Part shown: in pieces, positions 1 through 41,627 of the stretch
Numbering within the stretch: the stretch's first letter is position 1
Layout of the letters: the number at the start of each line of letters is the position of its first letter
Assembly: GCA_036172245.1 (NCBI GenBank)
Contig: JAYWIR010000073.1
Coordinates: 310,001 to 374,000 of the forward strand
DNA: 64,000 nucleotides
DNA from: Raillietiella orientalis
Lineage: Eukaryota
Direction of reading: 5' to 3'
Notes under the pieces: model-generated
Told to the model about the DNA's origin: nothing
Database searches by the model: none
Seen by the model: the letters and a program-made list of their open reading frames with translations, nothing else
Made by a program: the position numbers and the translations under genes

Positions 1-39
1 CTTGACGATCCCTTGCGGCATTTGATAATTTGGTTTCCA

Positions 40-760
40 AATGAAAAAGGGAAAAAAAATAGGTCGTATGAGCGATTTTCAAGGCCAACCAGCCTAAAGA
101 GCCAAGCAGTGTGGATGCTGGATGGGAGTCGGAAGAATCGCCATCCGATTCTTCGCCAACTTTGTAGCCCATGGAACCACACTTAGTTTGGTGTATGTCA
201 TCGTCTGTCTTCTTCAACTTGGTCCGCTTGCCATCCTGAAAGCGCCACACTGTAGGAGGATCCTCCAGACATGAGAGTGGTCGGGGGTCATCTTCTTGCT
301 CACCGTGGGGTACACTTCGATGCTAGGGAAGCACGAGCTGGAGGGAGAACCGAACAGATGTCATTCACCGTGTCCGGGAGAAGCCTCAGCCAAGGAAAGC
401 TTTTGGAAATACTTTCAACCATTATCCATGCAGCAGCCGTATCTCCATTTATATCCACGTAGAGAGCCAAAAGAAAATCCTCTGGAGACAGAATTCGCAA
501 ATCGAAGGAGTCTGCAAACTTTGAGCCACCGATTCTCATGCCATTTATTGATTCCAAAGTTGTAATTGGATTGATGGAAGTGCGATTTCGTAGGCAAAAG
601 TGCTGTGAGCCAGAGAGGAGAAAGGAGGAGAGGGCAGCCTCGAGAGGAACGTGTGCGGCGCTGAACCGAGATCGGGGGATTTCGATGTAATCTGTGACAT
701 GAAGGATATTCAAGAAGGCTGCCGACGTTACATTTCGGAAGTGAATTTTCCGCCTAGTCA
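40..760 (-). mobile_element. Possible decayed non-LTR retrotransposon 3' end
   Basis: Broken minus-strand frames give ...SKCTPR / HSHVWRILLQCGAF..., resembling the C-terminal zinc-knuckle region, followed by a T-rich tract like the other copies in this window. Weak. Confidence 0.25.
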
Positions 761-2168
761 AAAGAAATCCGCCCCTCGAACAGGATGGTTGGAAGGGGAG
801 GTGGGAGAAAAAAAAAAAAAAAAAACATGCAGGAATTGAAAATGGGATTGTTTATGTTTGCGCACATTCGTGGCTCAACTTGCTGGCTTGAAAGCAGCAG
901 CATTTCTTGCTCGCCTCGGTTCGAAGTTCTTACAAGTGGAGGTGCTTCCTAACATTTTCATCTTCTTCCACGCACGACCACAGCGTCTTCAGAATGTGCA
1001 AACAGTTTGTACCCTTCTCGTTTCCACCTTCCCCTCTCCCCTCCCTCCCCCCCAAAAAAAAGAAACGCTTTGCGTTTCATTTCGCAAAAGGTGATATGGC
1101 TGATAAAACTGCTACCTATTTCATTGGCTGACTTTTTACATGATTACATTCCCAAACATCATCGTCCCATCACCAGACAAGAGGATCAGCAATGTGCAGC
1201 AACTCCCTTATCTGTAAACAGACATCCGTCCTGTCAGGAAAGCATTTCCGGAAAGCTGCTGCTCGCGGCCGTCACATTTCAGCAGTGCGAATGCCATAAG
1301 GCGATGGGCGGTTCTGCTTTTTCAGAAGAGCGAAAGGCCGAGGGCATAACTGCCGTCTCGCGCGTGTGGAACGAAAAGTTTTTTCCCCTTTTCCCTTCCG
1401 GCAGAAGCAAACCGCTCGTTCGGTTCTCCATCCAGCCTCCAGAACGATTCCCGAAAGGGAGATTTCCGAGAAGCATCGCGGAAGCGGTTGTGCCGACCGG
1501 AAGGAGTTTCGCCGGAGTCGTCGCCCTTCCGAAAAAGAACCCATCGGTTCCGTTTCCGATGTGCATCCGCGGATTCCGAGTAACGGAGCGCCGCTTTTCG
1601 GATGCCGACTGCGGCGCCAGCGTAAAGCCCGACTGGCCGTCCTTGCTCCAGCGGAAGGGAATGTCACAGCTTGACCTGCAGCCGAGGATCGTGCGTCGCA
1701 AGAAAGCTCCGGCGAGATGGGTATTGGATTCGAAGAAGCAAACGCCCGGATTCGATCGCGGGTGCAGTGAATAGGCGGCCCTCCCGCGTACCTAAAACTC
1801 TGCCAGGCTGGAGCTCGAGTTGGGGGGCACCGACTTTTCCGGGGTGCGCTCACGCGAGTGCGTGCGCGTTCGGTACGCGACCAAGTCATGCCGAAAATGC
1901 CAAAGGGTTACAAGTCCACGAGCAAAGGAACAGATGTTTGATTTGCATTCCGTTCCACGCCTTCGCGGGCCTCTCGTTGCTTCGTGCACGCTTCCTGGTG
2001 AAGCTGGATAAGCTGCGTGAAGCGACCTCGGCGGCAAACCCGGCTCTCCCGTTCCCTTCACATCAAGAAAAGTTCTTCCCTTCAGTTCTGTTCGCTCAGT
2101 CGCGAGCGAAAGCATCGGTGGAAGGCGTCCCAAACGGATGTTATGAGCACCCCAGTTTTCCTTTTCAG

Positions 2169-5100
2169 GTGCCTGCGACAGCTTTCTGGGTGCCGGAAAG
2201 TGCCCTTGCCCCTCAAAGTGCTCCTCAGGATTTTGCGGTGAGCGAAGCCGTGTTTTTCTTCGCAAGTAACGCTTCATTCCTTTCGTAACACTTCACATTG
2301 CATGGCTGTGCCGAGCCACGCTCGAAAAAAAAAAAAAAAAATGCCTGAGAATCGCGCCAGCAAACCGACCATGGGGGTGGGGGGGAGGCCGACTGACTCC
2401 CATGGAACCGCCACCTGTCACCTGATTCTCGAGCAGACAGGATGAAAAAGTCATCTCTGCTTTCACAGAGAGAAGAGATCAGTGTGAAGAGAACGTCGGT
2501 CATGCGTTCTGCCCTTGCAATGAAAGGAAGATCTGTGCGTCAGGACTGAAATGTGTGGAAAACCTATGCGGTATAAGCGGCATCACCGAGAAATTCCGGA
2601 GACACACTCGGATGCGACAGGGATGTGTCCGCAATCCTGCTTCTTGCCTGACGAATGCAGAAGACCGCTTACATGCGACAGTGTGACACACATCTGCCGT
2701 AGGCTTTTGGGTGCACTTTTGCCTCATTTCTTTCTTTTTTTTTTTTTTCCTCCTCATCCCGTGCACCTTCGACTCCTGAAGGCACCTTTGCGCAAACTTA
2801 AAATAGCTCAAGTAGAATTGGGAGGACGGACCCTTCCGTCATTGGAAACTTTTAGCCATCTGAACGTTGTTGTGCTTTCCGTGCGGCCCCACGACTTTGT
2901 CTATTCTGCCGCCATCGTGAGTTGCGGTAATGTTGATGGATTTCTGCTAGTGGCATCGTGCATCACATCTCCGAAACCTTCCGGGTGCCCGTGTTCCTCG
3001 GATGACGAATGCGGCGACGGGAAGTGCACCGAAGAGATATGTGGTGAGAGTAAGGATCAACTGGGCGTACGTTTGCGTGGCCACACAAACGGCGTGTTGA
3101 AGAAGCTTTCTAGAAGGAAGCGACCTGGCTTTTGCTTTTGGTTTCGATGTCTGTATATCCCTATGCAGCATTGCCTATAAGTTGCTATTGTGACCACAGG
3201 AACCTCTGCGACCTGAGCGTAGATGTTGAAGTCTTTCCTGCAAGCAGACGTTTTTCTTTGAGCAGTGGGCTGTTTGCAAAACAGAGTAGGTTTCTATTTT
3301 TCCCTTGGATCATGTGGCAGACTTGCTTCTCGCAGCTCTGGGAACTGATGGCAGTACTCAGGTGTAAGCTCTTTGAAATCGGCGCATTTTCCAATTTCCT
3401 ACTGATTCTCTGTGGTCTTTTATTTAAGTAGGGTCTTTGTGCTACTTTTCTAAACCAAAAGGATTCCGGGTATGCATTTCCAGGTAGCAACTGTGCGAAG
3501 ATGCAGGGAAAAGACCATTTCCTCTTGGTGTTTACTTTTTTTTTTTTTTTTTTTAAGCACTGGTTTGAGTTTAGATCCATGCTGTCAGGATTTCTTTCTA
3601 AAAAAAGTGCTCCAGAAGTATTCGTATCTTCTTCGAAACTGACCTTAGCTGACGCTTTTATTCCCCCGTGAATGAATGAGTTCACGTCGACAGTCAGAGG
3701 CGGATCTGTCACCACTCCTTGCAGAATTTCAGCTGTTTTTCACAGGACCTCCTTCACTGCAGTCTGTAGAGGAAACGCAAAATTCTCTCGATGCGTTAAC
3801 GTAGCTGCCACGCCCCGCATGCAGGCAATGGCTTCCTATTTTCCGGTTCCTTTCGACTTTTCATTAATTTCTCCCAAACGCTGTGGTGCATAAACAGAAA
3901 AATAATGGTTCCTTAGTGATGCTGAATATCAAAGAATCTCCCTTTTTCAACGTGCTCCTTCCAAAGAGCTTTCATGGTTTCATGCAAGATGCATTACTTT
4001 TTCTTCGTGCAGTGTCTCAGACGGAAACACATTTTATCCCTGATCTGGACACAGGATCACGCTTTTTGGATCATCAGAAATCGATTGCTCATGCTCCAAA
4101 ACTTTGACTGCCATGTCTTCTTTTGCCACGGCAAATTCTATCGAAAAGGATTAGGTGTGAATGGATGACGGGAGATGTGCTCTCGATACGGTTCGTCGGA
4201 AGCTGCGCTCTCATTTCTGTATCCATTCCTGCTCGTCCTTAATGAAGCCCATGCATCTGATACATTTGCATCTTGGACATTTGTAGTACAAAGGAGGAAA
4301 GGAATCGTGCTTAAGGGCTCGTTCCGAAATGTACATAATGGGAACCCTATTTCAGCCTGGTGCTCATCTAAGGAGAACGACAGAGGCTGCCCTTGCAATA
4401 AATCCATGGAATGCAAAGTGGGTCTCACTTGCGAATGGGGAAGTTGAGGTGAGATTTCCTCACGCTGCCGGTGCAGCATATTCTGGAACCTTTCCTCATT
4501 TCTTCATTGCAAAGCATGTCTTAGCAAGGAACTGGTCCTGCCCGTTCTTCCTATCGAGATCACCAAAGCCATCTCGCTCAGCATTAAGAATTTTCAAAAG
4601 AGTAACACGCACGGTGTCTTTATGGCTTGTGGCGCCGCAAACCCCTGCGATGGTGGAGCACCTTTCCAGAAATCATGCTTTCCAGTTCCCGGTTGCCTGA
4701 AGAAGCCCCTTCTGTCTCTTTGCAGCTGCGAACGCCCTTCTGAGTGTGCAAGCGGCGTTTGCCATGTCTGTTCATTCTGTGGTGAGTAGGGACTTGGCCC
4801 CTTTCTATCAGTTCTATTCTGCAATAGACGAAAGCCAAAACTAATTATTCCGCATGCGCTTGAAAATTTTGGCACAGAAAATAAATGTCTTCAGACTGAT
4901 GCGCGATTCGGTAATCAAAGCCTGGGGTTCGAAAAAGTGTCTATGAAAAGATTTCGTCGGCTGGTGCATCCCAAGCTCGCAAAATTTGGTCCGGACTTTC
5001 CTCCGCCCACTCCCCAAGTCTGAAAATTCGAATCCGTTGCCTTCCTTCCTTGTTCCACTCATTCTCAGCGTGCATCATCATCAAAGTGCGCATTCGTGAA

Positions 5101-8100
5101 GACATTCGTGTCAAATTTCAGGAAGCCTTTTAAAAGGGTATCACCTCCACGCGAAGGAAGCGGTTTCCGTGTTCTTCACGAGTGTCCTTGATCCCTAAAA
5201 TGCCGCGCCTTTAGAAAGGCAAACACCTTTCCTATCTGCTGTACATGTCCGTTCTGCGTGCGGTAGAACTTTAGATTTCCTGACCCAATCGAGCAACGAA
5301 CTGATGGCGTGTGGTTGGTGTACTGTAGAAAGTCATGCTCAGAGGCAGAAAGGAAAACAGAAACAGCCACTAAGCGAAGGAAACATACAGTGGCGATCAG
5401 CATGGAATCGGTCTTCACTCTGCAAGCACTAAAGCTTAAGAAAAAGAGACAACAACCTACTTAGAATGCGCTCACCTATCACTGTCAATGAACAAGCAAT
5501 TCATAGACGTGGGGGAGGGGTGGGGTTCTGCTTTTCTTCTTCTCCTTTTTTTCTTTTTTGCTTCACAAACTTGTCTTTGCTTGTCAGTTCCCTGTGTCCT
5601 AACTCCTGGAGGGAGCAGCCGTGCATGTACTGTCCCTGATGACTGCCGCGGAAAATGCGATTCGAAAGCAGCGGCATGTGGTGAGATTTCTAAAGAATGT
5701 TTGCGACTCCTAGTCTGGGAATCTGCGTGCTGCAACTCGATCTATTTGCATTCTCGTACTCAAATGCATCCAGTCCAAGCAAGAGCGCACATCTCGATCA
5801 AAAGCGAAAAAGGGACAGTTTACGGAGGTTGTCGGAGGTGACTCCGACCTGCTGCTTTCACGCTTTCGTTTCTTTTCATCCCTCACCCTGGCTCTGCTCC
5901 CGAACGCCTTCCCTGGATCAGGAATTTGCCAGCAGATCATAAAGGCTCCCGGATGCCCCTGCACCCAAGACGAAGAGTGCGAGCAGCACTTCTGCAGCGG
6001 GAAAGCTTGCGGTGTGTCTTTGCTTTCGTGAATCGCTGAAGAAAGAGTGCGACGTCAGGTTGCCTTGCGCCTTCTCCCGACGGATGTCGCTGTTCTTTTC
6101 CCGAAGAATGCTTCAACGTCTGCACGAGGGACCCGGAAACAGGAGGGCTGACTTGCCGCGGCGGCGAAGGTACGTTGTGCGAACGCGGTTCAGACCTCTC
6201 CAGCAACAGTCGTGGAATTCCTGGGATGGGACCACCGGTCGATTTTTTCTCAGGAAACTCTCCTCATCCTCCTTTCTCCTCGTAGACTTGTGCTCCGGAG
6301 AGAAAGGCGACGGTTGTGCCTGCGTATCAAACGAGCACTGCAAGTCCAAGTTCTGCGTGAAGTCGGAGCCAGGAGCAACATTCGGAACGTGCTGTGAGTG
6401 CTTCAATGAGGAGCGCGATGCGCTCTTCTTTCTGGATGCTGCGGTCCAGACCGTTGAGGCAGAGCTGAGGAGACGAATGGCTCCTCCTCCCATCCTTCCG
6501 TCGCGGAGTTCGATCGTGCAAGAAAAATTGCCGTTCTTCGGCTCGGCGGGGCTCATTTGACTTGGTCGCCATTCCTCTTCCGTGTGTTCTTCGTAATCGA
6601 CTATTGGCGCTCCGGCGAGCGGCTGCATTCGCGCGCTGCGCACGCAGCGGTTCGCCGGTGCCTGCGGTCGGTTTCGCTTGCGGCGCACGCGCGAAACGCG
6701 AAAACGCTTTTTTTTTTTTCCGTACGACGGCGGCGAAGGCACCGAAACCTTCCAATCCAGCTGTGCCATTGTGTAGATTCTTCTTGCAATTTGAAACCAA
6801 AGGCTCCTTTCTGCCAGTGCAGCTCTCCAGGGGACTGCGAGCACGGCGTGTGCGGAAGGAAAGGGTGGAAGAAAATATGCGGTACGAACCTTTCTACACG
6901 GTTCAGTTGTCCTGGGAACACGGAACACTCCGCATCAATTTGCAAGAACGAGCTGTGCACACGTCCCCTCTTTATTTAACTGTAGTGAACCGCATGGCTG
7001 CTCCGCGACTGCCTGGCTGTTCGTGTTCGTCCAATCACCATTGCAGAGGTCATCGCCGAAAGCATCGCTGCACAGGTATGGTGGGAACTCGGATGCTTGT
7101 GTTGAGGGTGTGCTTTTGAACTTGCTGTTGTTTGCATCCAATGTGGTCCTAGCGTAAGAAGGATTCTTTTGGCTTCGTGGTGACCGGCGGCAGTCCCCAA
7201 GTAGGAAGGGGCCCCCGGTGCTTCTTGCGCTGCTATCACAACCCACGGAGTCGGCTGCTCTTTGTTCAAAGAGAACGTGCATTACATCCACTTCAACACA
7301 GCGCTTGCGACTATGAAGCGAAGCATTCCCTTGAAATGCTTCCCACCTCAGATTCCGGATGCTCGAAAACAAAGTGGCGTCCCAGCGGATGTTCCTGCTC
7401 GATACCGGAAGAATGCGTGGCTGAAAAATGCGTCCCTGGAGAATCTGGGAAAGGTCTGAATTGTGCAGGTAAAGTGTCATCTTTCTAGCAAGGCATCTCA
7501 GCCTTGCACCAAAGTTTCCGCGGACGCAAGAGTTGCATCGTCATTCGGTTTCCTATTCCAGCGTACTGCCTTACCGCTCTTTCTGCATTACTGTCTGAAG
7601 GGTGTCCATGTTCTCATGACAAGCGGTGCCTAGGGTGGATGAAGTGTCTGTAAACAACCGGGACTCGCGGTAGGACTCTCATTTTGCGTGAAAAGTGCTT
7701 GAGCATGGATGGAATGGGTGTCTTCTCAACGACTGCTCTTCTCGTAAGACGCAAAGGCTGCCTTCCGTTTCCGGTTTCCCGGTTCCCTCCCTTTCTTTCG
7801 GTAAAAGGGTACTCAAGGAGGAATAATCGCACTTTGAACCAAACCGAGTGGAAGATGCTGGAAGTTGTCTCTTTTCGCACCGATGCGCTGACCACTAGAA
7901 AGAAGAAACATGCTTATCGGATCAATTAATCACTAAGAGTATCATTAGTTTCGTGATAATCATTGGTCCTGCATATCATTCTTTTTTTGTCCATTATTTG
8001 TCAATTTTTCGGGCGTCGCGTTTTTCTGTGTGGGAACGTAATTGGTATGCGTCTTATTTGGTATCCACCTTGCTGAGCAATCTTGATCACAAGTACGATG

Positions 8101-11014
8101 AAAAACTCTGTCGGAAGGTCAGAAGTGGGGGCTAACATCACACTGCTACCCCACAAGGAACCTCAGGACAGAGGGTACTTGCTTCCGGTTCAGCCTGCGT
8201 CTTCAGAGTACGAAGCGCTTCTCATAGAAATAGGCGAAGGCACTTTGGACAATCCTAAAGGCTTTGGTTTCTCGTGGGCGCTTCCCACGTTTTCCACCTC
8301 TACTGGTCTCAACTAATGAGACACATGGCAGTGCATGAGGAAGGAGGACTGCAAGATCTTCCCAAGCATAATGAAATCCTAAATTTAATGCATATATTTC
8401 TGTCATATTAGTTTTAACTTATCCTGGGATGAACCTGGGCAAAATGATATGCAGAGCCGTAATGTTGAGAATCGCCATCTGTTCTGATCACCGTCAAACA
8501 GTCTCACCTCTTCCGGATACGACGTCACACTGCTCCAGTCGATTGGATCTGGAATCCCAAATGAAAATCTTCAACCTCACTCTCCACCTTTCAAAAGAGA
8601 GCATGGGCCAGTTGGCACAGCTCAATGCGGCAGCCCCCATGCGCACCCATTTTGTCTTCAAGTGACGTAGGCCGAGACGAAAAGCTTACTCGAGCGAACT
8701 CCCATTCCAGTCCGGAAAGTCTCGCGGCTGTGCGGTGGAACAAAAGACCATGTGGTGATCCCGTTTTATGCCTCCTTATGCTTTATCCCTTCTTTCGAAA
8801 ACTCGCTTGACCGCTTCCACTCTGCCGTGGTACGATCTAGTCGCTCGCATGTTGGCGCTCTTGGTTTCGACACGAATCCTGTTTCTGCCTCCACATGCTT
8901 TTGCGGCCCTCCGTCTGATGCTGATGGAATATACGTAAACGGTTCCCTTCTTGGTGGCGCACTTGCGCTCTGGAACATCAGACAGGAATACTATATGGAT
9001 TCCGAATGATGCGAGTGATGACCGGAGAACGATGTTTCCCGTGGAGGGGAGATTTCTTCCTTCGGGATTAAACAAACGCCCGCGGGCACGTGGTCATCTC
9101 GACACGAGTCAGCCGGTGGAGTTGTTTTCCTGAACGGGAGCCCTAGAATTTCGTCGCCGGCGTCCGAAATAACAGCATTATTAGAAAAAAAAAAAAAAAA
9201 AAACAATCTCATTAAAGAAAGGCTCTACGGTGACTTGTTTGATGACTTTTATACAAACTCACTCGCTCAAAGGTCTCAACTTGGTCTTTTCAAACTTTTG
9301 AAATTCAAGAATTGGGACAGCCATGAACTCAATGACCTATGATTTCTAGAGGATTGCACGGCCGCCCCGAAACCTACGGGATGTTCTTGCGAAACCGACA
9401 GTGACTGCTTCAACCACTGCACAAAAGGATTGTGTGCGGACGGTAAGTGCACTTATCTCGTTGACTTTTTACTTGAATTGGAAAAGGGGTGAATGTGCTT
9501 CCAACGTAAGCACTTTGCACACATTGTGCAAAGGGCACAATTCCCCACCTTATTTCGGTTGACCGTTTCAAACAGCGTTCTTCCCAGAAATTTTTCCTCT
9601 GAATTTGTCTCTACGAAATCTAGAGCGGTCTGGTACGACTCCGCCTCCCGGATGAACGATCCCAAAAAGAGGATCGGGTTTTCTCTTCAGGGTCATCCGA
9701 ACCCTTCTAACGAGCACCTTGAAATGCCAACGAAATGGCATGCGCTCTAAGCAGCCGTTCCCGAATTCCCGAGATCTGAATTTCGCGAATGGCATCCATC
9801 GACTTCTCAACTCACATCGGCGACGCCCAATTCGATCACCGAGCGAACCTCCGGATCGCGAACTTTCTGCTCTCCTTACGCGGGGGAAACGCGCGGGGCT
9901 GCTGAAAAATGAAAGTGGAACCCATGTTGGCACTATGGAATTCTAGCGCCAGTGCCAGTGAAAGCTTCTCGTACTGTTTGCACTCCTCCCTTTATTCAGA
10001 TTTGTGTCTCGGATCTCGGCGCCCTGATGGTTGCTCTTGCGATACGAGCGATCAGTGCGCCAGTCGAGCCTGGCTGATGGCGCATTCGGCAGGATTCAAG
10101 AAATGTGGCGAGCATCACCTTCTGCCGGTGCGCCACGTGCCATGTGGTGACGCTTGCGCTCAGTTCAGTGTCTCCGGAAACCGTATCCCGATGGCTGCGG
10201 ATGCAAGAGCGCAACGCATTGCAAGCACTATTGCTTGAAAGAGGCGAGCACCGGATTCCTTGTTTGCAGTAAGTTTCACTCCTGAAAGCTGGAGAAGGAC
10301 ACCGTGGTGACTAGCGAGAGCGGTCACATGGAGTGACTTGGGCCGCAGCATCTTGCGGTTGGAAATTCCGATCGCAAGCATCCCAGCTGCACTGTTGCCA
10401 AGCGACTTTTCCTGTACAGCGAAAGAGATGATTCCCAATGGATGCTCTCTTTACTAAATTTTGCTCATGATGAAAATTCATCGCAAGGAATAATCCTTCT
10501 GAATGTGACCAAAACTCCTATCGGTTTCCCTTAGAGTGCCCGTGTTTGAATGGCGGTAGATGCGAAGCCAAACTGAGAGACCTTGTGAATTGCACCTGTC
10601 CTGAAGCATATTTTGGCGACCTCTGCGAGCAGAGGAAATGGAGTAAGTGGGAAAAGGACATTCTTTCCGCACCTTTCTCTCTTCATCATCTCATCTTATC
10701 ACCCCCATTAATCTTTTTTTATTGATCCTGGATTGTCGGCTTTTCATCCAGGATTGGACACCTTCACCATCATCATCCTCACCTTTCTCGGGATCGTCTT
10801 CCTCCTTGTGTTGCTTGCCAGAGCACTCTTGTCTTTGTTTATGAAAGGTACGCTTGTCCGCTGCCGCCTTCCGCGTGAATGCCTGGCTCCGATTTGTGCT
10901 CCTTCCCCAAGGGCGTGAATGATGCTCCATGTTCTGTCATCCCGTCATGTAGAACCAACGCTCTGGAGCGCTTTGGCAGAACGGCATGCTCTGGCGTCAC
11001 CAAAGTCTGAGTAG
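2169..11014 (+). CDS. Multi-exon Cys-rich repeat + EGF + transmembrane protein (type I membrane architecture); partly disrupted, 5' end not found
   Basis: AG/GT-bounded exons, each a multiple of 3 in length and phase 1-1: 2169-2237, 2469-2570, 2621-2698, 2951-3043, 4356-4448, 4686-4781, 5588-5680, 5922-6011, 6286-6393, 6777-6881, 6986-7075, 7352-7468, 7562-7669, 9350-9442, 10000-10107 (GC donor), 10164-10268. Example products: CITSPKPSGCPCSSDDECGDGKCTEEIC and CTAAPKPTGCSCETDSDCFNHCTKGLC. Then EGF exon 10535-10642 (CPCLNGGRC...CTCPEAYFGDLCE), TM exon 10752-10847 (IIILTFLGIVFLLVLLA) and a possible tail exon 10953-11014. Confidence 0.8.
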
Positions 11015-14000
11015 GAAGTTCAGTGACGTTTCCGTATCAAGTCTGCTGAAAATCCTGCTTCAAGGGAATGGCTGCAGCTTCTTTCCGATTGCAGGAACAG
11101 GGACGATTCGAGTGCCAATGCGTGCGATGCACATCTCCTCGCTTCGCCATCACCGCGCCAGTCGCTCGCCATGGTACGAACCGCTTCGAGCCATCAGGGA
11201 TGCCCGCGTTTCTTTCTTTCACGCATCCTCCGAGCGAAGTGTGGGCAAGGGTGTTGTTGCATGCAGCCGGAGCGTTCGAGCTCGCAGCGTCTCCCTATTC
11301 ATTATGGGAGTTATTCTTGCGGTTACGGTGCCCTTTCCACGTTGCTTGGTGATCGATCCGGTATGCATTTTGTTCCAGGTTCGACCATGCTGCCCTTCGC
11401 CTCCCGAGAAGAATACGAGATGCTGCTGGAAGTCAAATGAATCATCCGGCAACCTGTCGTGGTCATGGCTGGACTGAGGTCCCTCTCTCGTTGCGGTGAC
11501 CTTCCTCGGAGGAGGCGTCGTTCCTTCCGATCTTCCACACCGCACGGAGCCAATGGACCCATTTGGAATAAAGGCGACCATTCGGTTTGACTTTCCGAAG
11601 ACGCACCGAGTGCCTCGCCTCCCGTTTGCGCGGGAGTGTTTCGTGCTGCCTTCGGAAAGGAGAGCACGAACAGCATCCGAGGGAAGAGAATGCTTCCATA
11701 AAGATGAGGCAAATGAATCGCACCTCGCCTTGCCCACGGTCCCTTTCTCAGAACGGCTCCTCTCTTGGAAGGCAGCCTTGGATGTGTGCGTCAGCGGCGC
11801 CATTTCGGCTGCACCCGCCCAATCCTTCGTTGCAGTCTGACAACGTCACAAAAGCTGCTCTGTGAGGATGCGTGCGCTGGGCTCCCGTCGCTCTTCTAAC
11901 GCACGTGGCTGAGCAAAGAATTCCAGCTGAGGATGGGCCCACCACGAGGTTTGCGGGGAATTTTCTGTCTTCGTTTCGCCGGAGGGCGCGACCGGCACTT
12001 CGGCTGGGGCGAGCAGCGGCTGCTGGTGCGACTTGCCAACGAAAAGTGTCACGAGCTGACCCAGGAGGGCTATCTCCGATGGCCACCTGTGCAGGATGGT
12101 GGGTACTACGGGCGTTGTCCACTATGTGTACATCCCTCCCATCACCCCATTGCTCTGTAGGGCTTCAGCACGTCTTCGGGTAGAACAAAACCAAATTCCA
12201 GAAATCGAATCCGTCTAAGATAATCAGCTCTAATGAACACCTTGTAAGCCGTGCAGAAACCCTCGCGCTCCATGGTAGGTGGGACGTTCCATCGTTTTCT
12301 CGGAGGCTGCTAGCGAATTTTTCCGATGTGAAATAGGGGCGTAGGAGACGAGGCCTTGATATGAAGATGTGAACCGATAGGCTTTCGAAGTTCATTCTGA
12401 CCAAAATCCCGGAACGGTCTTCCTTCCGGTCTCCCTTGGGCATGTCGAGAAAACAATCCTCCTCCACCAACTTGCTTCCTCGCCGCCCCTCATTGGCTTA
12501 TTAGTGATCCGCCTTCTGGAAACGAACACTTCGTTTTTTCCGCGGCCTCGGTTCTCGCGTTCCAGCAACTTCATCTTTCAAAGGGCATCTTCCAAGACAA
12601 GGATACTGGGCTGGCTCAGCAGAGGGGAGAGCGAAATACCTGCCGAAGGGCGTGCGAGGCACTTGCAGCAACCGTGGTGTAGTACGCCCCGAGCTCCACG
12701 GATGGATGCCAGGAAAAGGAGGTCATCCTCGTCCGTGGATCGGTGAGCGCACTTTACACGCTGCAGGAAACCACAAAGGGCACTTCGTTTGCCCTGAACT
12801 CACGCATTGCCCGTATGGATGTGCAAACGGATCACGCGTGAGCCGTCCAAACATTTCCAGGCGAACGTGCTCGGGAAGCACAGCCAGTGCACAGTTCGTT
12901 TCGCAGCCCACTCTCTTCCGACGTCAACGCAGCAGCACCAGAGACTTGCAAAGACCAGAACGGCTGCTGAGCGCATTCCATGTGGCATTCACGGAGCTGT
13001 CCCACTGTCGCCCACCTGCGAAACACGAACTCCCTCCCTCCCTATCACTCTCCGAGTTATCTCTCCGCTTTGCTTCCTGTTTCTCCCTCTGCTCCAATTC
13101 CTTCTCCAATGACCACCTGCGCATCCTTCTCGCTCCAGAGTCAGCATGGTGACGCTCGCCCTTTACACAATGCAACGCTCCGTCGACGTCCATCTTCCCC
13201 GAGGCTTGGAGATCTCCCCTACAACAGCAAAATGCCGATTTCCCTGTTCCGACCTGTAGAGGGGTGAATTTGGGAAGCAACTTTGAAACAAAGAGCGCAA
13301 TCACGCATCTTTCTGCAGACACTTTGTCGAGTATTCCTGCACGCAGCATCCCACAAGTCAACAAGTACCACTTTCTGCGTTCAATTTAAAAGAAAATCTT
13401 TTCCTATTGGTCGAGGGGCAATGGAGTCCGGTGAGCTGTCCACTCGCTTGGGGCCATCCGCCACCTTCTGCAACATGCAGCGGAAACTCAAGGGGGATCG
13501 TCTAACTGATCTCCGTTTCCCTGTCGATGACTGCTCGGACGATGGTCGTCGCGAGCTCTGCTGTGTTCCGCATCGGTATGCCCTTCTTATCACGTTGCTC
13601 GTAGCGAAGAGGGCAACGGTGGTCCGTCCCAAGAGATTGTATGGCGTTGCCCTTCCCTCCAGTCACTCCCGCCCGCACCTCCATCTTCGTTTTCGCTCTG
13701 CACGCGGGCCCCCCCGCCGGTCAATCCTGGCGCAGAGCCGGCCAACGCGAAGTCGGGATTCCCTGGCTGCGCATGCCTGGCAGTGCTCGTCCCGGCTGCC
13801 ACCTGTTCAACCGTTCAGTCTGGAGCCACCCGGCCTTCCCCCGTGGCCAATCCATCGGGAGGTCATCATCCCGAGCTAGTCCGCGGGTCGGTCTCCTCCT
13901 CCACCTCCTCGTTGTGCCCGCCGATAACAGGCCTTCATTTTCAGGACCCCGTGGCTACTGGCAGCCACCTCGAGTGCGTCACCTTCTCTCCGTTTACCCT

Positions 14001-14399
14001 TCATTTCATCGCGGATGTCAGCTCCGACGACCCTTCCAGAGCTCGTGGGTCCTGTGGCTGCATCTTCCCATCACTTCCGCACTCTGTGGCAACAACTACC
14101 ACTGTTCTCCGTTGCCAATCCTTATTTCCTGACCTCTGAATCATCCACTTTCAAGTCTCCCCCGCGACCCTCATGAAGTGAGGAATACCATGGTCAGTTG
14201 CCTTTTGCCACGATTCCTTGCTTGTAGGCACTATCTTCAGTTGGTGACCGCTCCACCAGTGCCTGTTTTCTTCTCCACGTTCTCCGAATCTCCACGTTTG
14301 CCAATTGGAGCTGACATCAGTTCTTTCGAATTGTTAATCAGCCTCGAGGGGACTCTGTGCACCGCGTACTGATCTTTGGAAGCCCCAGAGGCAACGCGA

Positions 14400-14740
14400 G
14401 AGACGTTTTCAAGCGCCAATTCCTGCGCGATGCCCTCACGCCGTCCGCGTCCGCAGCAACACCTTCCTGTCCACGTGGCTGGACCGCGGCTGCATGGAGC
14501 AGCGCCAGAAAAAACAGAACGACAGGGAAGCCATCTGTTTTGCTGTCCTTTCCTTTAAAACATCGTCAAGATGGACCCAATTGGAAGTCTCGGAACAAAA
14601 CTCTCCGACGACCTTACAAGGATGCAGAGGACGCCCTCCAGCACGCAGTGATCCCTCCCCGACCCCTCAGCCCCATCACTTTCTGACTGCATGTTTTTTG
14701 CCTTTTTTATTCTATTCTTTTTGTTTGTCTCCCCTGTCGT
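14400..14740 (+). mobile_element. Non-LTR retrotransposon 3' remnant
   Basis: aggatgcagagg...gtgatccctcccc (~14618-14660) matches aggatgcagagg...gtgactccctcccc (~25956-25999). Both follow an RW-x-[HQ]-L peptide and precede a T-rich tract. Confidence 0.5.
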
Positions 14741-16459
14741 GGCGACTCTCACCGGTCTGCGCACCAGTTCCCGGCAGGGTTTTTTGCGTGGTTTTAAGCC
14801 ACGTGGTGGGATCAAACGCCCTTCCACTTGCTCATTTTTGAGATGGCGGAGCGTTGCTGATCCGGCTGGAAGGGCTGCTCGTCCTCGCGGAAGAGCAGAA
14901 GGCAAAGAAGCCGCTGAAATTCCACACGCCCCGACTTGCTTGCGTTGCTGGTGCGTGGTCACCGAGGCGGTCGCCGGTGACGATCCTCAATCTCTCCCAG
15001 GGAAGGACAGGATTCGCGTCGTAATGAGCGAGAAAGGAGCGATGCGTCATTCTTTAATGCCGAACTCGGAGCTCGTCCAGCAGTGGCACCTTCCTCTCGT
15101 CCGATCGGAGTGCCACGCACGGCAATTCCGGGCCACCTCGCTCCCTGACCCTTTCGCGGTTTGATCTGAAAGCGGATGCGACTATTCGGGCAGAGAGTGA
15201 CCTCCACTGCAAAGAACGGGCCCGCGTTCCCTCGAGCCATCCTCGTTACATCCCGTGTAGTCTCTGCTTCCTGACGTCGGCTGCAACGGAACGGCAACTG
15301 CCTAGCCTGGAGGGCGAAGAGCGGGTGCACCCTCCCTCGAGCGATCGAAGAGCCAGCTGCGCAGGAGCGTCATTTTGGCCCTTGCGCGGTCATTCCGGCG
15401 TGCATCGTTACGGGCCGCTTGGCGATCGAGAACGGCCGGATCACTTTCGAGCCCCTCAACCGCGTTGCCTGGCTACGGGACGCAGCGCAAAATCGTACGC
15501 GGGCGAGGGGCAGACTACCGTCGTGGCCAGCCAGGGTGGGTACCCCACCCAGAGGGACGCAGCTCCTGGAGATGCACTAGGAAGTCTCTTTCGACGATCA
15601 CCGCAGGCAATGCGTTGCCCTCGAGTGCCTGTCGAGCCGGAAAAAGAAAGAACACCAAGGGAGTGGGGTGGGGAGTGATGCCAGCATTGACGACCTCTCC
15701 GCCTCTGGAGGTCAACACCGGTTTCCCGTGAAAAACAGAAAACGAAGGTCCCGTCGATGGAGCGAGGCGCAGCGCGTTGCCACTGACGACGGGGTTTGGC
15801 ACGGAGCGTCTTCAGCCACCGACGGAGACATCGCGCTGGTCGAAAGCAAAACCCAACCGTCGATTCGGGTAGCGAAGTGGCCGTAAGGACGGCATGTGCC
15901 TCGGGCGGCGCCAGCAGAGCCGCTTCCGAGGAATGGCACCAGCGCCTCCTCCGCGTGCCGGCGTGTGTGTCGCGCTGCGAAGGGAGGGTGCGCAGGGGCG
16001 ACCTTTGGAGAGACTGTGACAGAGGGCGGCTCGCGCGGACGCCTGCCTAACGTCAGTGCACGCTGGACCGCTTACCACCGCCCACTCAGAGCACGTCGGC
16101 GCCGAGCGGCCATGCGGCCGTAGATACCCTGTGCGCACCTGAACGTGGCAGTTAGGCGGAAGTGGATTCCTTTCTTTTCGCGACATTTTACTCCATCAAT
16201 CCATAGTAAAGCTTGCGTATTTGGTCACCACAGGATCACTGGTTGTGCACTGGGCGTGAAGACGTCCTCGGATGATGATAATGGGGTTCGGTGATGTGAC
16301 GGTCGAACACCTGGCTCTTCGGATTGCAGTATTTCTTTCGGTGACTTTGCGGTTCCAGAGCGCTTCCCGCGCGTTTACAAGTTCCCATCTTCAGCTACCG
16401 CCAAAAGTTTCCACAGGGCAGGCGACGGATAGAATCTTCGAGAACCGAGGCACCCGCAT

Positions 16460-17560
16460 CTGTGAGATCAGCCGCCGTCATCAGCCGCCAAAGGGGGGAA
16501 GTGGAATTCTTTCGCTTACTCGGCACACCGGAAGCGGAAGAGGCGGTCGACCAAATGAGACGTCACCTCTTGCGCTTTTTCGAATGCGACCCTGCCGGCA
16601 GTGAGTTGCCGTCTTCGAGTGCGTCCTTCGCTGGAACCCGAGGTCTCAGCGGTAGCGAGGAGGCGGCCTTCAGAGAGACTTCCATCACGAGTAGGGTTCA
16701 GCAACCATCTCGCTTAATGCGCAGCGGTATGCTCCCGGGTTCCTGCCGCAGCGGCTCCAGGATCGGGAGCTTCGAGCTGCGTGTACACTTTCCTTCGTCG
16801 ACCTTGACTGGTGGCATTCGTGATGGAAATCTCTTGGGTTCTTCTGCTTCCCTTTTTGCCTCCCAGCCTTTTTTTTTATTTCGATTTCCAGGGAGTGCCG
16901 AAGAACCGTTCGCCTCCTCAGGGGGGTTACGAAGCTCCTTGAACACTGTCCATGACTCCGAGGGTGCGTGCCAACTCTTCGAAACAGGGGGTACTCCGGG
17001 AGGGAACCACCCTACGTATCCAGGAAAGCTCCGGAGGAAGGACTTTATTTTCCTTACGGTTGGGAGGGAACCATCTCTTCGTTCCCTCTTCTCTCCCGGG
17101 GAGGGTCCCTGTTTCTTCCTTTGAAGAGAACCCTGAAGGGACGCTTCCCGATCTCCTCGGAAGCGAAGGGAGCAGCGCGTTTCTTGGCCCGCTTGAGAGG
17201 CAACCCCTGTGGGAGAGATCAATCAGCTCCATACGACGCAATGGAAGGTCTTCAGAGGGGAGGGACGTCTCCGTTTTCGCAGCCGAAGAGGAACTCCCAA
17301 GGGAACTGGCTCGCGATTTCCGGAAGAACCCTGAGGGTCAACTTCCAATCCCGGTGGCTGACCAAGGGGGGGGGGATTCTGGCTTCCCCGAGTGCCGCAC
17401 CCGGATAGGCCAACCAGCGCCATCTCGCGGAGGGAACTGGAAACTCACGATACGCGGTCCCCGTTCACGGAGTCGCCCGTTCCCCCCCCCCGGGCGGGAC
17501 TCGAACCCGTTGTGCCTGGTGCCACCCACCGCGGGCGGAGAAATATACCTTTCTGTGTTG
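16460..17560 (+). mobile_element. Non-LTR retrotransposon 3' remnant plus junction repeat copy
   Basis: HLLRFFECDPAGSELPSSSASFAGTRGL resembles DLMRRFFTPGGLSLGAVVATVCCTRAI of the 21.8 kb copy. A T-run follows at ~16868, then sequence homologous to 29.3-29.97 kb (inverted) and 58.3-58.9 kb. Confidence 0.55.
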
Positions 17561-18959
17561 CATTTTTTTCCCTCACGGCCGCAGCAGATTCACGGCTGAT
17601 CAGGTACGGAGCTCCCGCATCGTCTTCAGGAGAATTCTCGAGTCAGAGCGAAACGGAAGCTGCCTGCGCCCTGGAAGGATCTTTTTTGCCTTGTCCGTCA
17701 CCAGCGCCGAACGCTTTGTCGTCCCCATGGCTTCTCAGCTTCATGCAGGAATCCTTAGAGGAAGAAGGCGCACTGGTCCGCCAAACGAATCATTCGAATC
17801 GGAGCGCACTTCTTAGATCGGCCCTCGGTCTGTACGCGGATCCTTCCAGGGTCCTCCCCGCTCCGGGTCCCTGTCCCAGGTTCCTTCGTCATCCCTACCT
17901 CACCATCCCGAGCCATTCCATCGTCGTCTCCCAGCAGATGTTTTGCGAATGATGGGATGTGGCCTGATCTATTTGCCACAAATAAAGGGGGAAGATCTCC
18001 GGTGGCGACGATCGTAGCAACTTATCAGGAAGGATGGCCGGAAGGAAAAACTCCAAGAGTTGCTCATGATAGATTTTCGTGATATTCTCTTGAAGCTGCG
18101 AAGTCAGCTGACTTGTACGGCAGCGAGACTCAGTGGGGAGGTTAATTGCGTTTTCAAAGGTCAAGGGCCACGAAAAGCACTTTGGACGGTTCCTCTGATT
18201 AATTGATCGGCATATAATTGCATCACTTAAGTGAGGGATGCCTTTCCTGCAGCTCCTCCGTAGCAGCACATCGAAGGCGCTTAGGGATGCGGAAGGCGAA
18301 AATCTCCTGGAACAACTTTATGCGGCGTAAACGGCTAAGTGGGAGGACTGGAGGTATCCGCTGGTAGCTGCAAAAGTGGTATGCGAAGAATAAGGTGCCC
18401 TCAAAAAAATAGGAATAATCTAAGAGAGTCGTTTGCCCCTCGCGTCTTGGTGAATGCAAGCTGCATTTACGAAAAGTGTACGATCATGGACATAAATAGG
18501 CACAGACCTGCAGCCCGTAGGAAATGTCAGTACCATGGAAGGAATTCGGATCGATCAGGAAAAGTTAGTGGGAACTCGGTGGCGACGTGAACGAGCGCCA
18601 GAAACTGCACGGAGATCAGGGAGATCGGTGGAAAGAAGAGCAACGTAAAACGGAGGGTAGAATCTTATGTGCAGCATCCGAGTGCCAACGACTGAGCAGC
18701 CGTGAACACGGCGCCCATAATGACGGCGACTCGCACAAAAATCAGTAAAGGGAAAAACGCGATCTGAAGAAAATGGGTAGCTTTGCTGCCACTGCTGGAA
18801 AGCAATCCGGGAAGTCTGGAAAGAAGGGACGCGATTCCGAGACAGGAGTGAATCCTTCACCAGACTGAAAGAACGTCAAAGAAACCAAAATGACGGTAGA
18901 TCGACCACCGTTCCATGCCATTATGTCCAAGAGCGCGAAAGAAATGCGAAGAGATCTGA

Positions 18960-20760
18960 AAGAGCAACAACTGAGCATCGGCAGTTTGAAAAGTGTTTGT
19001 GACGGGAAGAATTCTTCAGTTCGGGCGATTTCTTCAAGTCTTCTGAGCTTCAGAGCACATTTCTACTCTCGGAACGTACAATCCAATGGCCAATCTTGAA
19101 GCTTGATTCTGTTCGTCGTTGGCATCGTTGCTCCCATGACGTCATTCTGTAACCGAAAAATCCGGTTCCTGCTTGCATTCATACTTGCGATACCTTTCAG
19201 CAGTGTGCAGCACCTCGTAAGCAGGGGATGAAAGTGTATTGGGAAACAATTCTGTCCGGGTGGACAGACGGCGTGTTTCCCTGTCGAAACCAGTCATTCC
19301 ACGAGCTGCTGCAATTCCTCCCGTTTCTGCACGGTCGGTTTCTTCCACTTCCGGGCTCTTGAATTTCCTTCTTTGCATCTCGCATGCTCCATCACGGTTC
19401 TTTCCTCTGTCACCCACGTTGCCCTTCCTCGACCAACGGATACTTCGCATTTGATAGTTCCAAGACCACGGTTATAGACTTCATTCGAGGTAGAATGGTG
19501 AGGCTCGCGAGAACTTGACAGCCGCTCTTCCTGAAGAGTCTGCCACGAATTCTAGGGCACCACACCGAGCTGCAAGGTGGGAGGAGATGTGCTTGCGGGT
19601 CTCCGCACTGAGTCTTCCTCCTCTTGCTTCAACGAGAGGAAAGGTAAGCCCGAATCGGTACCACCGCTGCCACCTTCACACGACCGGAAGCGTCGGCGTC
19701 AGCGGCTGTTCTTATTGCCCACAGGGTGATCACTGCAAGATCAAAACTTGCTGGCGGTATATCATCTTCCATTCCATGGGTCTGGAAGGAAAAGCATCCC
19801 CGCTTGACGTCGGCGTCGTGCCGCGAAGGAACCTGCACCGACGAGTCGTCCTCATTCTTCGCGGCCAAATGCAGCGCCGTCAATCCCAGGTGGCACACGG
19901 CATTCACGACGCCGTGGAACCTCAGGAGATCAACCATTTCGCTGGTGGGGAGCTCATCGTCCTCAACCGGCGCAACGCCACTCGTGCTCGCCGGGCTGAA
20001 GTCGCTACGGTCGCTCCGAAACAAATCCTCCAAGCAGTCCTCTCTGTAGTTCAAGGCAACGTGGAGTGAGGTCCTTCCGTTGTTGTCTCGCGCGTTGATA
20101 TCGCTCCCACGTCCCAGAAGTCTCAGAACACCCTCGTTCCTGTTCCTCGCGGCGATGTGGAGGGCTGTGATGCCCTTGGAAGTCCTGGAGTTGACGCAGG
20201 TCCCGTAACTCAGGAGCACCTCCGCGGTTCCCGAGTTCTCGTTCCACGACGAAAAGTGGAGCGGCGTGTAGTTCTTTATGAGCGACACGGGATCCATGCA
20301 GACTTCAGGAGCTCCTCGGTCACCGAGCTGAACCCGGACGCGGCCGCCACGTGGAGCGGCGTCGCTCCGTTCTTGTTTGCGGCGTCCACGCACGCTCCGC
20401 TGTCCAGCAGCGCCCTGACGACCTCCCTCGCGTTCCCCTGCGCCGCCAGGTGGAGCGGGGTGTTCCCGTCCCCGTTTCGGGCAGACACGTTGGTGTCTCC
20501 GCTGAGGAATATCATTACAGTCTCCACTTCCCCCATGTGGGCCACCTTGTGGAGCAGGCTGTCGGAAGGTCTTCTGGCGCTGCTGGGCTTGGCGAGGAGG
20601 AACTACGCCACTTCCGGGTAGTCCTTTCCGAGGGAGGCACTGACCATTTTGTTGAAATCGCTCTCGTCCTCCAAGCTCAACGGGTAGAGGTGGTCGATTT
20701 TTGCCAACGTTCCCCACCCGACCGCTTTCACCAATTCCTTGTAGGGGCTCTTACCTTTCA
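18960..20760 (-). pseudogene. Ankyrin-repeat (probably ANK-PRANC) pseudogene
   Basis: Clear ANK repeats (GNTPLHLAA, GATPLHVAA, YTPLHFSS, GITALHIAA, GLTALHLAA) are split across frames. In-frame TAG at 20605-20603 and a frameshift near 20300. The N-terminus YKELVKAV...YPEVA*FLL parallels LEELNVAI...YEVAELLL of the 804-aa gene. The C-terminal region is heavily degraded. Confidence 0.85.
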
Positions 20761-30480: not shown

Positions 30481-31137
30481 TGCAAAATTAGGAAACGTCA
30501 GGAAAATTGGGAAGCACCCTAGAAAATGGATGCATTTCGTCCCTCGGATAATCAGACCATGGTGCTTCCCAAATTCGCTAGTTTCACTCCCCACCCCCTC
30601 CCCAGTGACCTCCGGAAACGGAAAATTTTATGCTTCCTGTTGGCTCTTTGGAAGTTCTGCTAAGCACATAATGAAGAGCCCTTCCGATGTGCTTTGACGG
30701 ATGCGCGCTCCGAGGTTTTTGCCATCTTCCCGCAGTGCATCGGGTGGCAGACCTTTTCTGCCTGAGGTTTTCGGAGACTGCGCTCAGCCCTCAACGAGGA
30801 AATACCACCGCCAGACTGCACGGAAACCGTCGCAGCGGAGACCCTGGCAAATTCGGATTTTGGCTCTTGGCTAACGACCGACTCTACGAGCCTCGTGCGC
30901 GCAACCCTCTGTGTCCCAAGGCTGTGTGGGTTTCTTCAAGCCTGACCACCATTTCGTTGGTTCGGAGCTTTAAATTCACGGGGCGAGGTAGGGGGTACCA
31001 GATCTCGTTTGCAGCGTGTACCGTCCTCCAGCACGCTGTGGAGAAGGAGGAAGGAGAGACCGATATTTAGAACCAGAAAATTCTTCTAATCGTTTGCGCG
31101 GTGTGAAGGAAGCACCTGTGTCGGAGTGCATAAGGAA

Positions 31138-40348: not shown

Positions 40349-41627
40349 CTAGCATTTGCTAGCTGCTGTTTCTGGAAAATACTTATGATAGTTCATAGAT
40401 TCTAGATAGATGGAACATAGATGCTGCAAAAAACCGTCCGCAGCGAACGAAGACATCCCACTTCTGGGATAAAAGAGGTGTGTACATGTGACTGTCAAGG
40501 TTCTTAGAGAGAAAAAGAACGAGTACGCATTTGACAAGATTGCTGATTCATGTCTTCTCTGTCACAACACTTTCAAACAGTGTCCAATAAAGCTGACTCG
40601 ATTCATTTTCGGCTTCGAACGTTGTGTTTTTACTATATGTTTTCTAGCATCCAAAGGTTTCAAACTGCACAGATTCAGAAATCTCTTCACCATGGTTGTT
40701 TTCCACTGCATCAGCTGACTTTTGCGGACCTTCCCAGACCACTGCAAATTCCTCCTGATGGTTTGACTCTGATAGTCACAAAACATGCTAACACATTCTA
40801 CCAGTTGCTGTAAGAAGGTCTCAGGAATCTCATGCTTTTGAAACACTGGACAATGCAATTTGTGGATAGTTGCACCATTCTTCCAAGGGGAACATTCTTT
40901 TACTTGTAATAATTTCAACACGGAGTGCCGACATTGCAACAGTTTATCAGGGGGCTGAAAGTGTTCACACACAACATAAACTTCCGAATTTCCTGGTTTA
41001 CTGCTTGCTGGTTTAAACACTTGCACTTTGTGGAAAGAGCAAACCAACAAATACATTAAGCATATTGTTTGACACTCGAATGTAGTAAATATTTTCAGAA
41101 CAAAACATCCTCCCACTTTAAGTGAATGTATTGCCAAAAGGATTTTGCAGAATTGTAGCTCAGATGTCATTGATTCTTGACTCCCAGGATTTGAACTGCA
41201 GTCAATGCTCCCATCTGCAGTAACCTAGGAAAGCCACACACAATACGTAACAGGTGATTCAAGCAAAGTATACCAAGTTTATCTCGCCTATTTCGGAGAG
41301 CTGTCCCATGAGGTTGGACGGAATTGTAATGTCACCTGTTTCATCTGCTCCAAACAACCGGCTATGGCATGTTTTCTCCATAAACCAGCTATCTGATGCA
41401 ATGCAACTCTCAGTACCTCCTTGGCAGAAGGGATTCAAGCTGGAAGCTCCCCAGATCCACTTGTAGGGAAAAAAATTGCAAAATTATTTTGGAAGAAGCA
41501 ATTCTGCCTTTACATCCAGTTCTAAACAGATATCTGCAAAGTTTGTTGTGTGTGTGTGCATTGTGATGAGCTTCAAGCTATTTGAATTCTGGATACTTGC
41601 CAGGAGAGCGTGTTTTGAAAAATTAAC
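40349..41627 (-). CDS. CMTR2: Cap2 mRNA 2'-O-methyltransferase-like (CMTR2/FTSJD1); both ends uncertain, possibly a pseudogene
   Basis: Exon 41459-41274 (WIWGASSLNPF...FGADETGDI) and an exon from 41224 (VTADGSIDC...GGCFVLKIFTTFE...FKPASSKPGNSEVYVVC) match the FtsJ-type CMTR2 core. Introns are 54 and 49 bp. Confidence 0.85.

Follow-up and report, generated by a model that had tools for sequence, protein, structure and literature searches.

Repeat-Built Membrane Proteins and the Locus in Context

Class 1-1 symmetry is described as the normal state of metazoan extracellular modules and as a mark of the exon duplication and shuffling from which they arose (PMC8001218). The gene considered here is built in this manner. 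The part of it that could be traced runs from position 2169 to position 11014 on the + strand of a 64,000-nucleotide stretch of DNA from Raillietiella orientalis (assembly GCA_036172245.1, contig JAYWIR010000073.1, positions 310,001 to 374,000), which is called the window below and to which all coordinates refer. It consists of a row of small exons for a cysteine-rich module, an EGF exon, an exon for a transmembrane (TM) helix and a short last coding exon. It is best read as the 3' stalk-and-anchor part of a working, mostly constitutively spliced animal gene for a type I membrane protein, a reading whose probability we place slightly above even.

Several described proteins resemble the predicted product in architecture. 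NimC1 of Drosophila carries 10 NIM repeats and a single TM helix, and it ends in a short cytosolic tail whose function is unknown (PMC6852320). The Nimrod receptors NimC1 and Eater may be compared with the present protein as arthropod type I membrane proteins that combine an ectodomain of small cysteine-rich repeats with one TM helix and a short tail. By analogy, the Nimrod family may offer the best model for how the protein would work, namely as a repeat-built receptor for adhesion or recognition. The repeats themselves differ, in that NIM repeats are EGF-like whereas the modules of the window match no EGF family. MUA-3 and MUP-4 of C. elegans are TM proteins of epithelial attachment, and the two papers on them both mention von Willebrand factor A (VWA), EGF and cysteine-rich repeats (PMC2150771, PMC2150763). 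These proteins provide an analogue for a VWA head followed by a long cysteine-rich ectodomain and a TM anchor. Unlike the present modules, their repeats are EGF modules, and no VWA domain was seen in the open reading frames (ORFs) of the window that were scanned.

The Dscam clusters illustrate another use of exon arrays. Their exons are alternatives for one position, are of near-equal length, and are chosen through pairing between docking and selector RNA sequences. Arrays of the Dscam1 type share with the present locus a long row of similar exons within one surface-protein gene. They differ from it in that the exons of the window vary from 69 to 117 nucleotides (nt) and that no docking/selector pairing was found among them. 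The modules are better read as tandem parts of one chain than as Dscam-like alternatives.

Organization of the Module Exon Array

Candidate exons were collected as units flanked by AG and GT, in phase 1-1, with at least five cysteine codons and a CxC motif, and exons missed by this filter were checked singly. Seventeen module exons with splice-site flanks were found on the + strand, every one of them in phase 1-1 and a multiple of three in length. The initial annotation had proposed at least 16 symmetric exons of 69-117 bp in phase 1-1, each encoding a cysteine module, and this description of the array is borne out. The exons are listed below in order with their lengths, together with a dead module copy that precedes them; bits refer to the profile hidden Markov model (HMM) of the modules described further on.

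1607..1694, + strand: psi0, dead module copy with a 1-nt frameshift; C2 changed to R; no AG acceptor and no GT donor at its edges; HMM -1.3 bits
2169..2237, + strand: E1, 69 nt, phase 1-1, 5 Cys (C6 absent); leave-one-out -0.0 bits
2469..2570, + strand: E2, 102 nt, 6 Cys, donor gtataa; leave-one-out 1.0 bits
2621..2698, + strand: E3, 78 nt, 5 Cys, intron of 50 nt before it; leave-one-out 5.4 bits
2951..3043, + strand: E4, 93 nt, all 6 canonical Cys, used as the reference in alignment A1; 33.1 bits
4356..4448, + strand: psiA, 93 nt, good acceptor and gtgaga donor, TGA at the expected last Cys codon
4686..4781, + strand: E6, 96 nt, 7 Cys; 20.3 bits
5588..5680, + strand: E7, 93 nt, 5 Cys (C2 lost); 12.5 bits
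5922..6011, + strand: E8, 90 nt, 6 Cys; 19.9 bits
6059..6169, + strand: E9, 111 nt, 6 Cys, intron of 47 nt before it; 21.7 bits
6286..6393, + strand: E10, 108 nt, 6 Cys; 20.8 bits
6777..6881, + strand: E11, 105 nt, 6 Cys; 23.6 bits
6986..7075, + strand: E12, 90 nt, 4 Cys (C1 and C5 absent); 21.3 bits
7352..7468, + strand: E13, 117 nt, 6 Cys; 17.7 bits
7601..7669, + strand: psiB, 69 nt, C1 part absent, internal TAA, last Cys codon now CGC; 1.0 bits
9350..9442, + strand: E15, 93 nt, 6 Cys; 29.2 bits
10000..10107, + strand: E16, 108 nt, 5 Cys (C5 now W), GC donor (gcgagc) in place of GT; 15.2 bits
10164..10268, + strand: E17, 105 nt, 6 Cys, intron of 56 nt before it; 20.4 bits

The pattern encoded by each exon can be written C-x6-8-G-C-x-C-x5-C-x4-C-x4-12-C. 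Fifteen of the 17 exons are open, and the other two, psiA and psiB, contain in-frame stops. The canonical six cysteines are kept in nine of the 15 open modules (E2, E4, E8, E9, E10, E11, E13, E15 and E17), and the rest carry five (E1, E3, E7, E16), seven (E6) or four (E12). Upstream of the array, psi0 can still be read as D-C-GASVKPD, then the 1-nt frameshift, then G-R-P-C-SSGRE-C-HSLT-C-SRGS-C. Two exons have alternative donors nearby. In psiA, a weak GT donor at 4443, six bases upstream of the regular one, would give an open exon of 87 nt with five cysteines and avoid the stop. For E16, the next in-phase GT donor, at 10147, would leave only 17 nt before E17, a distance too short for an intron. 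The largest introns within the array measure 1312 and 1680 nt, and three exon pairs are separated by introns of just 47-56 nt. Homopolymer runs occur in the introns of the gene (A17 at 2325-2341, T14 at 2735-2748, T19 at 3536-3554, T12 at 6708-6719 and A19 at 9185-9203); these may be the tails of old retroposed elements.

Membrane Anchor, Tail and Predicted Topology

Downstream of the modules, the coding sequence ends with three further exons, followed by a candidate polyadenylation signal.

10535..10642, + strand: EGF exon, 108 nt, phase 1-1, six Cys in EGF spacing, recognized by Pfam
10752..10847, + strand: TM exon, 96 nt, phase 1-1, best 19-residue Kyte-Doolittle mean 3.03
10953..11014, + strand: last coding exon, for a predicted cytoplasmic tail of 20 residues, with the stop codon TAG at 11012-11014
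11567..11572, + strand: the sole AATAAA/ATTAAA in 11015-12500, a candidate polyadenylation signal

The EGF exon scores 26.6 bits against the Pfam family EGF (PF00008; cut-off 21.5, E 7.2e-06), to which it thus belongs, and 22.2 bits against EGF_2 (PF07974; cut-off 22.1). With the EGF exon and the TM exon, all 17 module exons are in phase 1-1, as in the class 1-1 mobile extracellular modules of Patthy, which are defined by a phase-1 intron on either side (PMC8001218). When the 15 open module exons are joined to the EGF, TM and tail exons, a single frame of 573 residues with one terminal stop results. The joined model contains 91 cysteines (15.9%) and one N-x-S/T sequon, and no recognizable domain is found in its 20-residue tail.

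The predicted topology is that of a type I protein, with a modular cysteine-rich ectodomain, an EGF domain next to the membrane, the helix and the short tail. In the initial annotation, the modules had been said to feed a single EGF exon and then a single TM exon, which is what the Pfam match and the hydrophobicity of the helix confirm. Its further proposal of a surface protein also gains support from the predicted protein, in which the cysteine-rich modules are combined with an EGF domain, with a single helix that is strongly hydrophobic and with the tail of 20 residues.

Motif and Profile Statistics

The arrangement of the cysteines is far from what base composition would generate. Across all six frames of the 64-kb window there are 12 matches to the strict motif C-x-C-x5-C-x3-5-C, every one of them on the + strand inside 2169-10268. 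In 200 mononucleotide shuffles of the array stretch, the same motif was found 0.02 times on average and at most once. A profile HMM was built from the 15 open modules (alignment A1), whose consensus is x-C-x3-P-x3-G-C-x-C-x5-C-x4-C-x6-C. Its positive scores were confined to the + strand, from 2174 to 10267, and its best match elsewhere reached -1.4 bits. Two rows of A1 show M for the standard-code L, their first codon having been read as a start under table 11, and this does not affect the result.

Because such a test is circular for the 15 sequences on which the profile was trained, it was repeated for each module with that module left out. In this form, 12 of the 15 modules were still recognized, with scores of 12.5-33.1 bits. 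The three most 5' modules, at 2171, 2471 and 2623, obtained only -0.0, 1.0 and 5.4 bits; on the sequence as it stands, E1 to E3 can be called modules solely from their cysteine spacing and exon structure.

Nature of the Module and Its Possible Relatives

In the searches of family databases, the module matched no named family. In Pfam, the 15 modules matched no family at E values up to 10 beyond noise, represented by LEAP-2 (0.14), Toxin_29 (0.83) and Squash (4.4), and the last two matches, to toxin and inhibitor families of the knottin type, are far below the cut-offs of these families. None of the 15 modules matched the EB module (PF01683), Dickkopf_N (PF04706) or DUF7107 (PF23416) at E values up to 10, and the four modules tried against NCBIfam gave nothing. 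A sequence profile search of the PDB with the module profile returned a best E of 0.88. In the ESM Atlas, knottin-like toxin clusters came up with a best score of 0.86, below the level of 0.9 taken as a lead. Nor does the module resemble the EGF exon of its own gene, the two profiles being aligned by hhalign with a probability of 0.8%.

Distant candidates were obtained when the profile was run against 1.84 billion representative proteins, among which 21 reached E values of 0.001 or lower. Most of these have only the four-cysteine core in common with the modules. The full six-cysteine spacing was seen in ten stretches of P0002, in three of P0019 and in one of P0007, a marine-protist transcript. 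P0002, a protein of 2219 residues from a bacterial metagenome-assembled genome (MAG) that bears the source name 'FecR domain-containing protein', matched the profile with E 9.9e-10 over 11 stretches, and hhalign aligned it to A1 with 53% probability over 23 columns. Its ten stretches follow C-x6-8-(P)-D-G-C-x-C-x5-C-x4-C-x4-6-C, and they share with E9, E16 and E17 a P-x-P-D-G-C-x-C core. In other respects P0002 is unlike the present protein, since it is bacterial, carries FecR, Big_6 and bacterial TSP3 repeats, and lacks an EGF domain, class 1-1 exons and a C-terminal TM anchor. From the sequences at hand, the likeness between P0002 and the modules of the window would be accounted for as well by convergence of a simple disulfide motif as by common descent. 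In P0002, the ten module-spaced copies fall within residues 1319-2219, and interspersed among them are a second repeated motif, of Cys and Trp, and the bacterial TSP3 repeats. Neither Pfam nor NCBIfam names the P0002 modules, and the NCBIfam search, which covered seven of the 21 distant proteins, gave nothing for the modules.

Among the 13 distant proteins scanned, eight weakly matched EB, DUF7107 or Dickkopf_N. Like the modules of the window, these families are small and disulfide-rich, with a core C-x5-C-x4-C-x4-6-C and an acidic or Ser-rich x5 loop; unlike them, they appear from the alignments to leave the N-terminal C ... G-C-x-C half outside their cores. The tentative description of the module as EB-like or knottin-like in the initial annotation is reasonable as a statement of likeness, given the weak matches of the distant proteins to EB, DUF7107 and Dickkopf_N; no module of the window reaches any of these families. 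The literature search brought up no mention of DUF7107 and nothing on cysteine-rich symmetric exons in phase 1-1. As far as its sequence allows a placement, the module is either a relative of this group of simple disulfide-rich motifs or a look-alike, and has no name of its own; homology and convergence would look the same here. Because its cysteine spacing recurs in a protein from a bacterial MAG and in the transcript of a protist, it is a candidate for a new domain family.

Age of the Duplications and the 5' End of the Gene

The array shows no trace of recent duplication. No direct DNA repeats of at least 30 nt were found in 1-12000 and no tandem repeats in 1-20000, and the identity of the modules to the reference, E4, is only 29-46%. 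The exon duplications are therefore old. Of the two possibilities raised initially, combinatorial splicing and rapid diversification, the latter finds no support in what could be tested, that is, in repeats, module identities and the age of the duplications.

As E1 starts in phase 1, the gene is incomplete at its 5' end within the window, and at least one coding exon must lie upstream. The module-free left edge of the window, at 1.6 kb, is no longer than the largest introns of the array, and the gene may well continue beyond it. The dead copy psi0 indicates that the array formerly extended further 5' and is eroding. There is no distinct CpG island in 1-13000, where the observed/expected ratio of CpG is 0.71-1.38.

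Between 950 and 2300, five overlapping frames of 166-273 codons on both strands are free of stops, in a patch that is poor in stop codons. Part of it, 1501-2000, has a GC content of 0.60 and a CpG observed/expected ratio of 1.3, and four of the frames, when scanned, gave no Pfam match. These frames look like an effect of composition, not like coding sequence.

A Working Gene or a Decaying Copy

On the preferred reading, that of a working gene, the array would have originated by old tandem duplications of class 1-1 exons for the six-cysteine module. The gene would presumably be expressed, its intact exons probably being spliced constitutively and its dead exons skipped. Given the symmetry of every exon, such skipping would leave the frame intact. 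Disulfides would staple the modules into a rod-like spacer, which would keep at a distance from the membrane either a binding head, encoded in sequence upstream of the window, or binding surfaces of the modules themselves. The predicted 20-residue tail is devoid of any signaling domain.

Several observations weigh against this reading. A crude scan of 1-2168 for a phase-1 exon starting with ATG and containing a hydrophobic stretch found no convincing start exon; the sole exons to pass its signal-peptide/hydrophobicity filter, 122-251 and 538-652, are both unconvincing. Four ORFs in 303-2285 gave no Pfam family, hence no VWA domain was seen there. Six of the 15 open modules depart from six cysteines, five of them having an odd number, and E16 has a GC donor. 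The AlphaFold model of a single module, made from the 15-row alignment, is weak, with a mean pLDDT of 69 and a pTM of 0.24. Relatives are also wanting, as no multi-module animal protein was found among the 1.84 billion representative proteins, and a word-indexed search with alignment A2 among proteins of 75-2000 residues yielded none at E values of 0.001 or lower among 1748 candidates. Because no multi-module relative was found, there is no orthologue from which constraint could be shown. Since the structure model is only moderately confident, a rod or stalk can be no more than proposed; compared with 48,161 solved chains, the single-module model resembled none at Z of 2 or more.

Part of this evidence would be equally expected if the locus were a decaying or truncated paralogue of a module-stalk family, a pseudogene or a gene becoming one, whose head or 5' part was lost after duplication. 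This explanation is the most serious of the alternatives, and we regard it as possible, with a likelihood well short of even. It draws on the three disabled copies among the 18 module copies (psi0 by a frameshift, psiA by TGA, psiB by TAA), on the GC donor and lost cysteine of E16, and on the odd cysteine counts of five open modules. The divergence of the three most 5' modules, the weakest in the leave-one-out scores, points the same way, as do the want of a convincing first exon and of a Pfam match in the four upstream ORFs. Against it, 15 module exons and the EGF, TM and tail exons are open, their splice sites are usable, and when joined they form one frame that is closed by a single stop at its end; all six cysteines are kept in nine modules. 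Moreover, dead exons that are symmetric and redundant can be skipped at no cost and are thus no proof of a dead gene, and the window may simply not reach the 5' end. The defects of the modules fit a decaying copy as well as a working gene. More generally, a working gene and a young pseudogene predict nearly the same picture, with about three of 18 copies disabled and the rest open.

Constitutive or Combinatorial Splicing

The array had initially been viewed as a set of cassettes, in which the symmetric exons would be joined in many combinations to give a repertoire of stalks or of binding surfaces. In an extension of this view, psiA and other exons with stops could serve as poison exons or give truncated, secreted forms. 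All the exons are indeed in phase 1-1 and multiples of three, such that any subset of them keeps the frame, and psiA retains a good acceptor and its gtgaga donor despite its stop. There are also competing donors between E16 and E17, a GC at 10108 and a GT at 10147, 17 nt before the acceptor of E17. Animals are rich in frame-preserving exon skipping (PMC8001218).

The same source presents phase symmetry as the usual state of such modules, and it occurs in constitutively spliced genes as well (PMC8001218); for this reason, the symmetry of the exons is no evidence for combinatorial splicing. Arrays of alternative exons usually look otherwise than a row of exons that range from 69 to 117 nt in length and have low identities, and no near-identical alternative exons are present, to judge from these lengths and from the lack of direct repeats of at least 30 nt. 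A search for docking/selector RNA complementarity was negative, in that the 25 inverted repeats shown, of 36 found, are all poly-A/poly-T pairings, fully accounted for by the intronic homopolymer runs. In addition, the introns of only 47-56 nt within three exon pairs suggest that the paired exons are spliced as units. We consider the use of the exons as cassettes unlikely. Exon skipping as such is possible, and psiA and the conflict of donors at E16/E17 are places where it could occur. That the locus is no gene at all, and that its cysteine patterns and splice-like flanks arose by chance, would at best be in keeping with the incomplete 5' end and has next to no probability, being already refuted, as far as sequence statistics allow, by 12 of 12 strand-biased motif matches within 8.1 kb against 0.02 per shuffle, by the recognition of 12 of 15 modules with profiles built without them, by an EGF exon above its Pfam threshold, and by the joining of all exons into one frame.

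Other Genes in the Window

Further ORFs with Pfam matches or other features of genes lie downstream of the module gene.

19629-20750, - strand: ankyrin-repeat ORF, 373 codons stop to stop, apparently intronless; Pfam Ank_2 E 2.8e-21
31090-33117, + strand: ankyrin-repeat ORF, 675 codons stop to stop, apparently intronless; Pfam Ank_2 E 1.4e-37
40562-41224, - strand: FtsJ/CMTR2-like ORF, 220 codons; Pfam FtsJ methyltransferase E 6.7e-15
48331-49320, - strand: ORF of 329 codons with a hydrophobic, signal-peptide-like stretch after an internal Met; no Pfam family
59120-61561, - strand: ankyrin-repeat ORF, 813 codons stop to stop, apparently intronless; Pfam Ank_2 E 3.4e-84

The three ankyrin-repeat ORFs form a local cluster of ankyrin genes. 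The idea of a PRANC-like C-terminus in them was dropped, as Pfam lists none. The best named relatives of the FtsJ/CMTR2-like ORF are animal CMTR2 proteins, with 33-48% identity, which shows that the animal has no close relative among those annotated. This ORF falls in the stretch of the window that is richest in AT (GC 0.40-0.42 at 38-42 kb). The ORF at 48331-49320 is possibly an exon of an unknown secreted protein. Rfam gave no match in the whole window.

Implications for Module-Built Surface Proteins

The most far-reaching interpretation of the array is that combinatorial use of its 15-17 exons generates a large repertoire of surface receptors, with psiA as a switch to a short secreted form or to decay. 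We consider it quite improbable; if true, diversity would here be generated in a Dscam-like way, with an undescribed domain as the building block. A more modest reading takes the six-cysteine module as a new family of class 1-1 mobile domains, which would be common to an arthropod gene family, marine protists and bacteria.

Genes of this kind are nearly invisible to views of a genome that are based on ORFs, and with no multi-module relative found in a very large protein library, gene finders may miss them. Mosaic type I membrane proteins made of class 1-1 cysteine-rich exons are themselves a well-known kind of animal gene, and no new principle is involved here. What is new is a six-cysteine module, absent from Pfam and NCBIfam, that would build long stalks in at least one animal genome.

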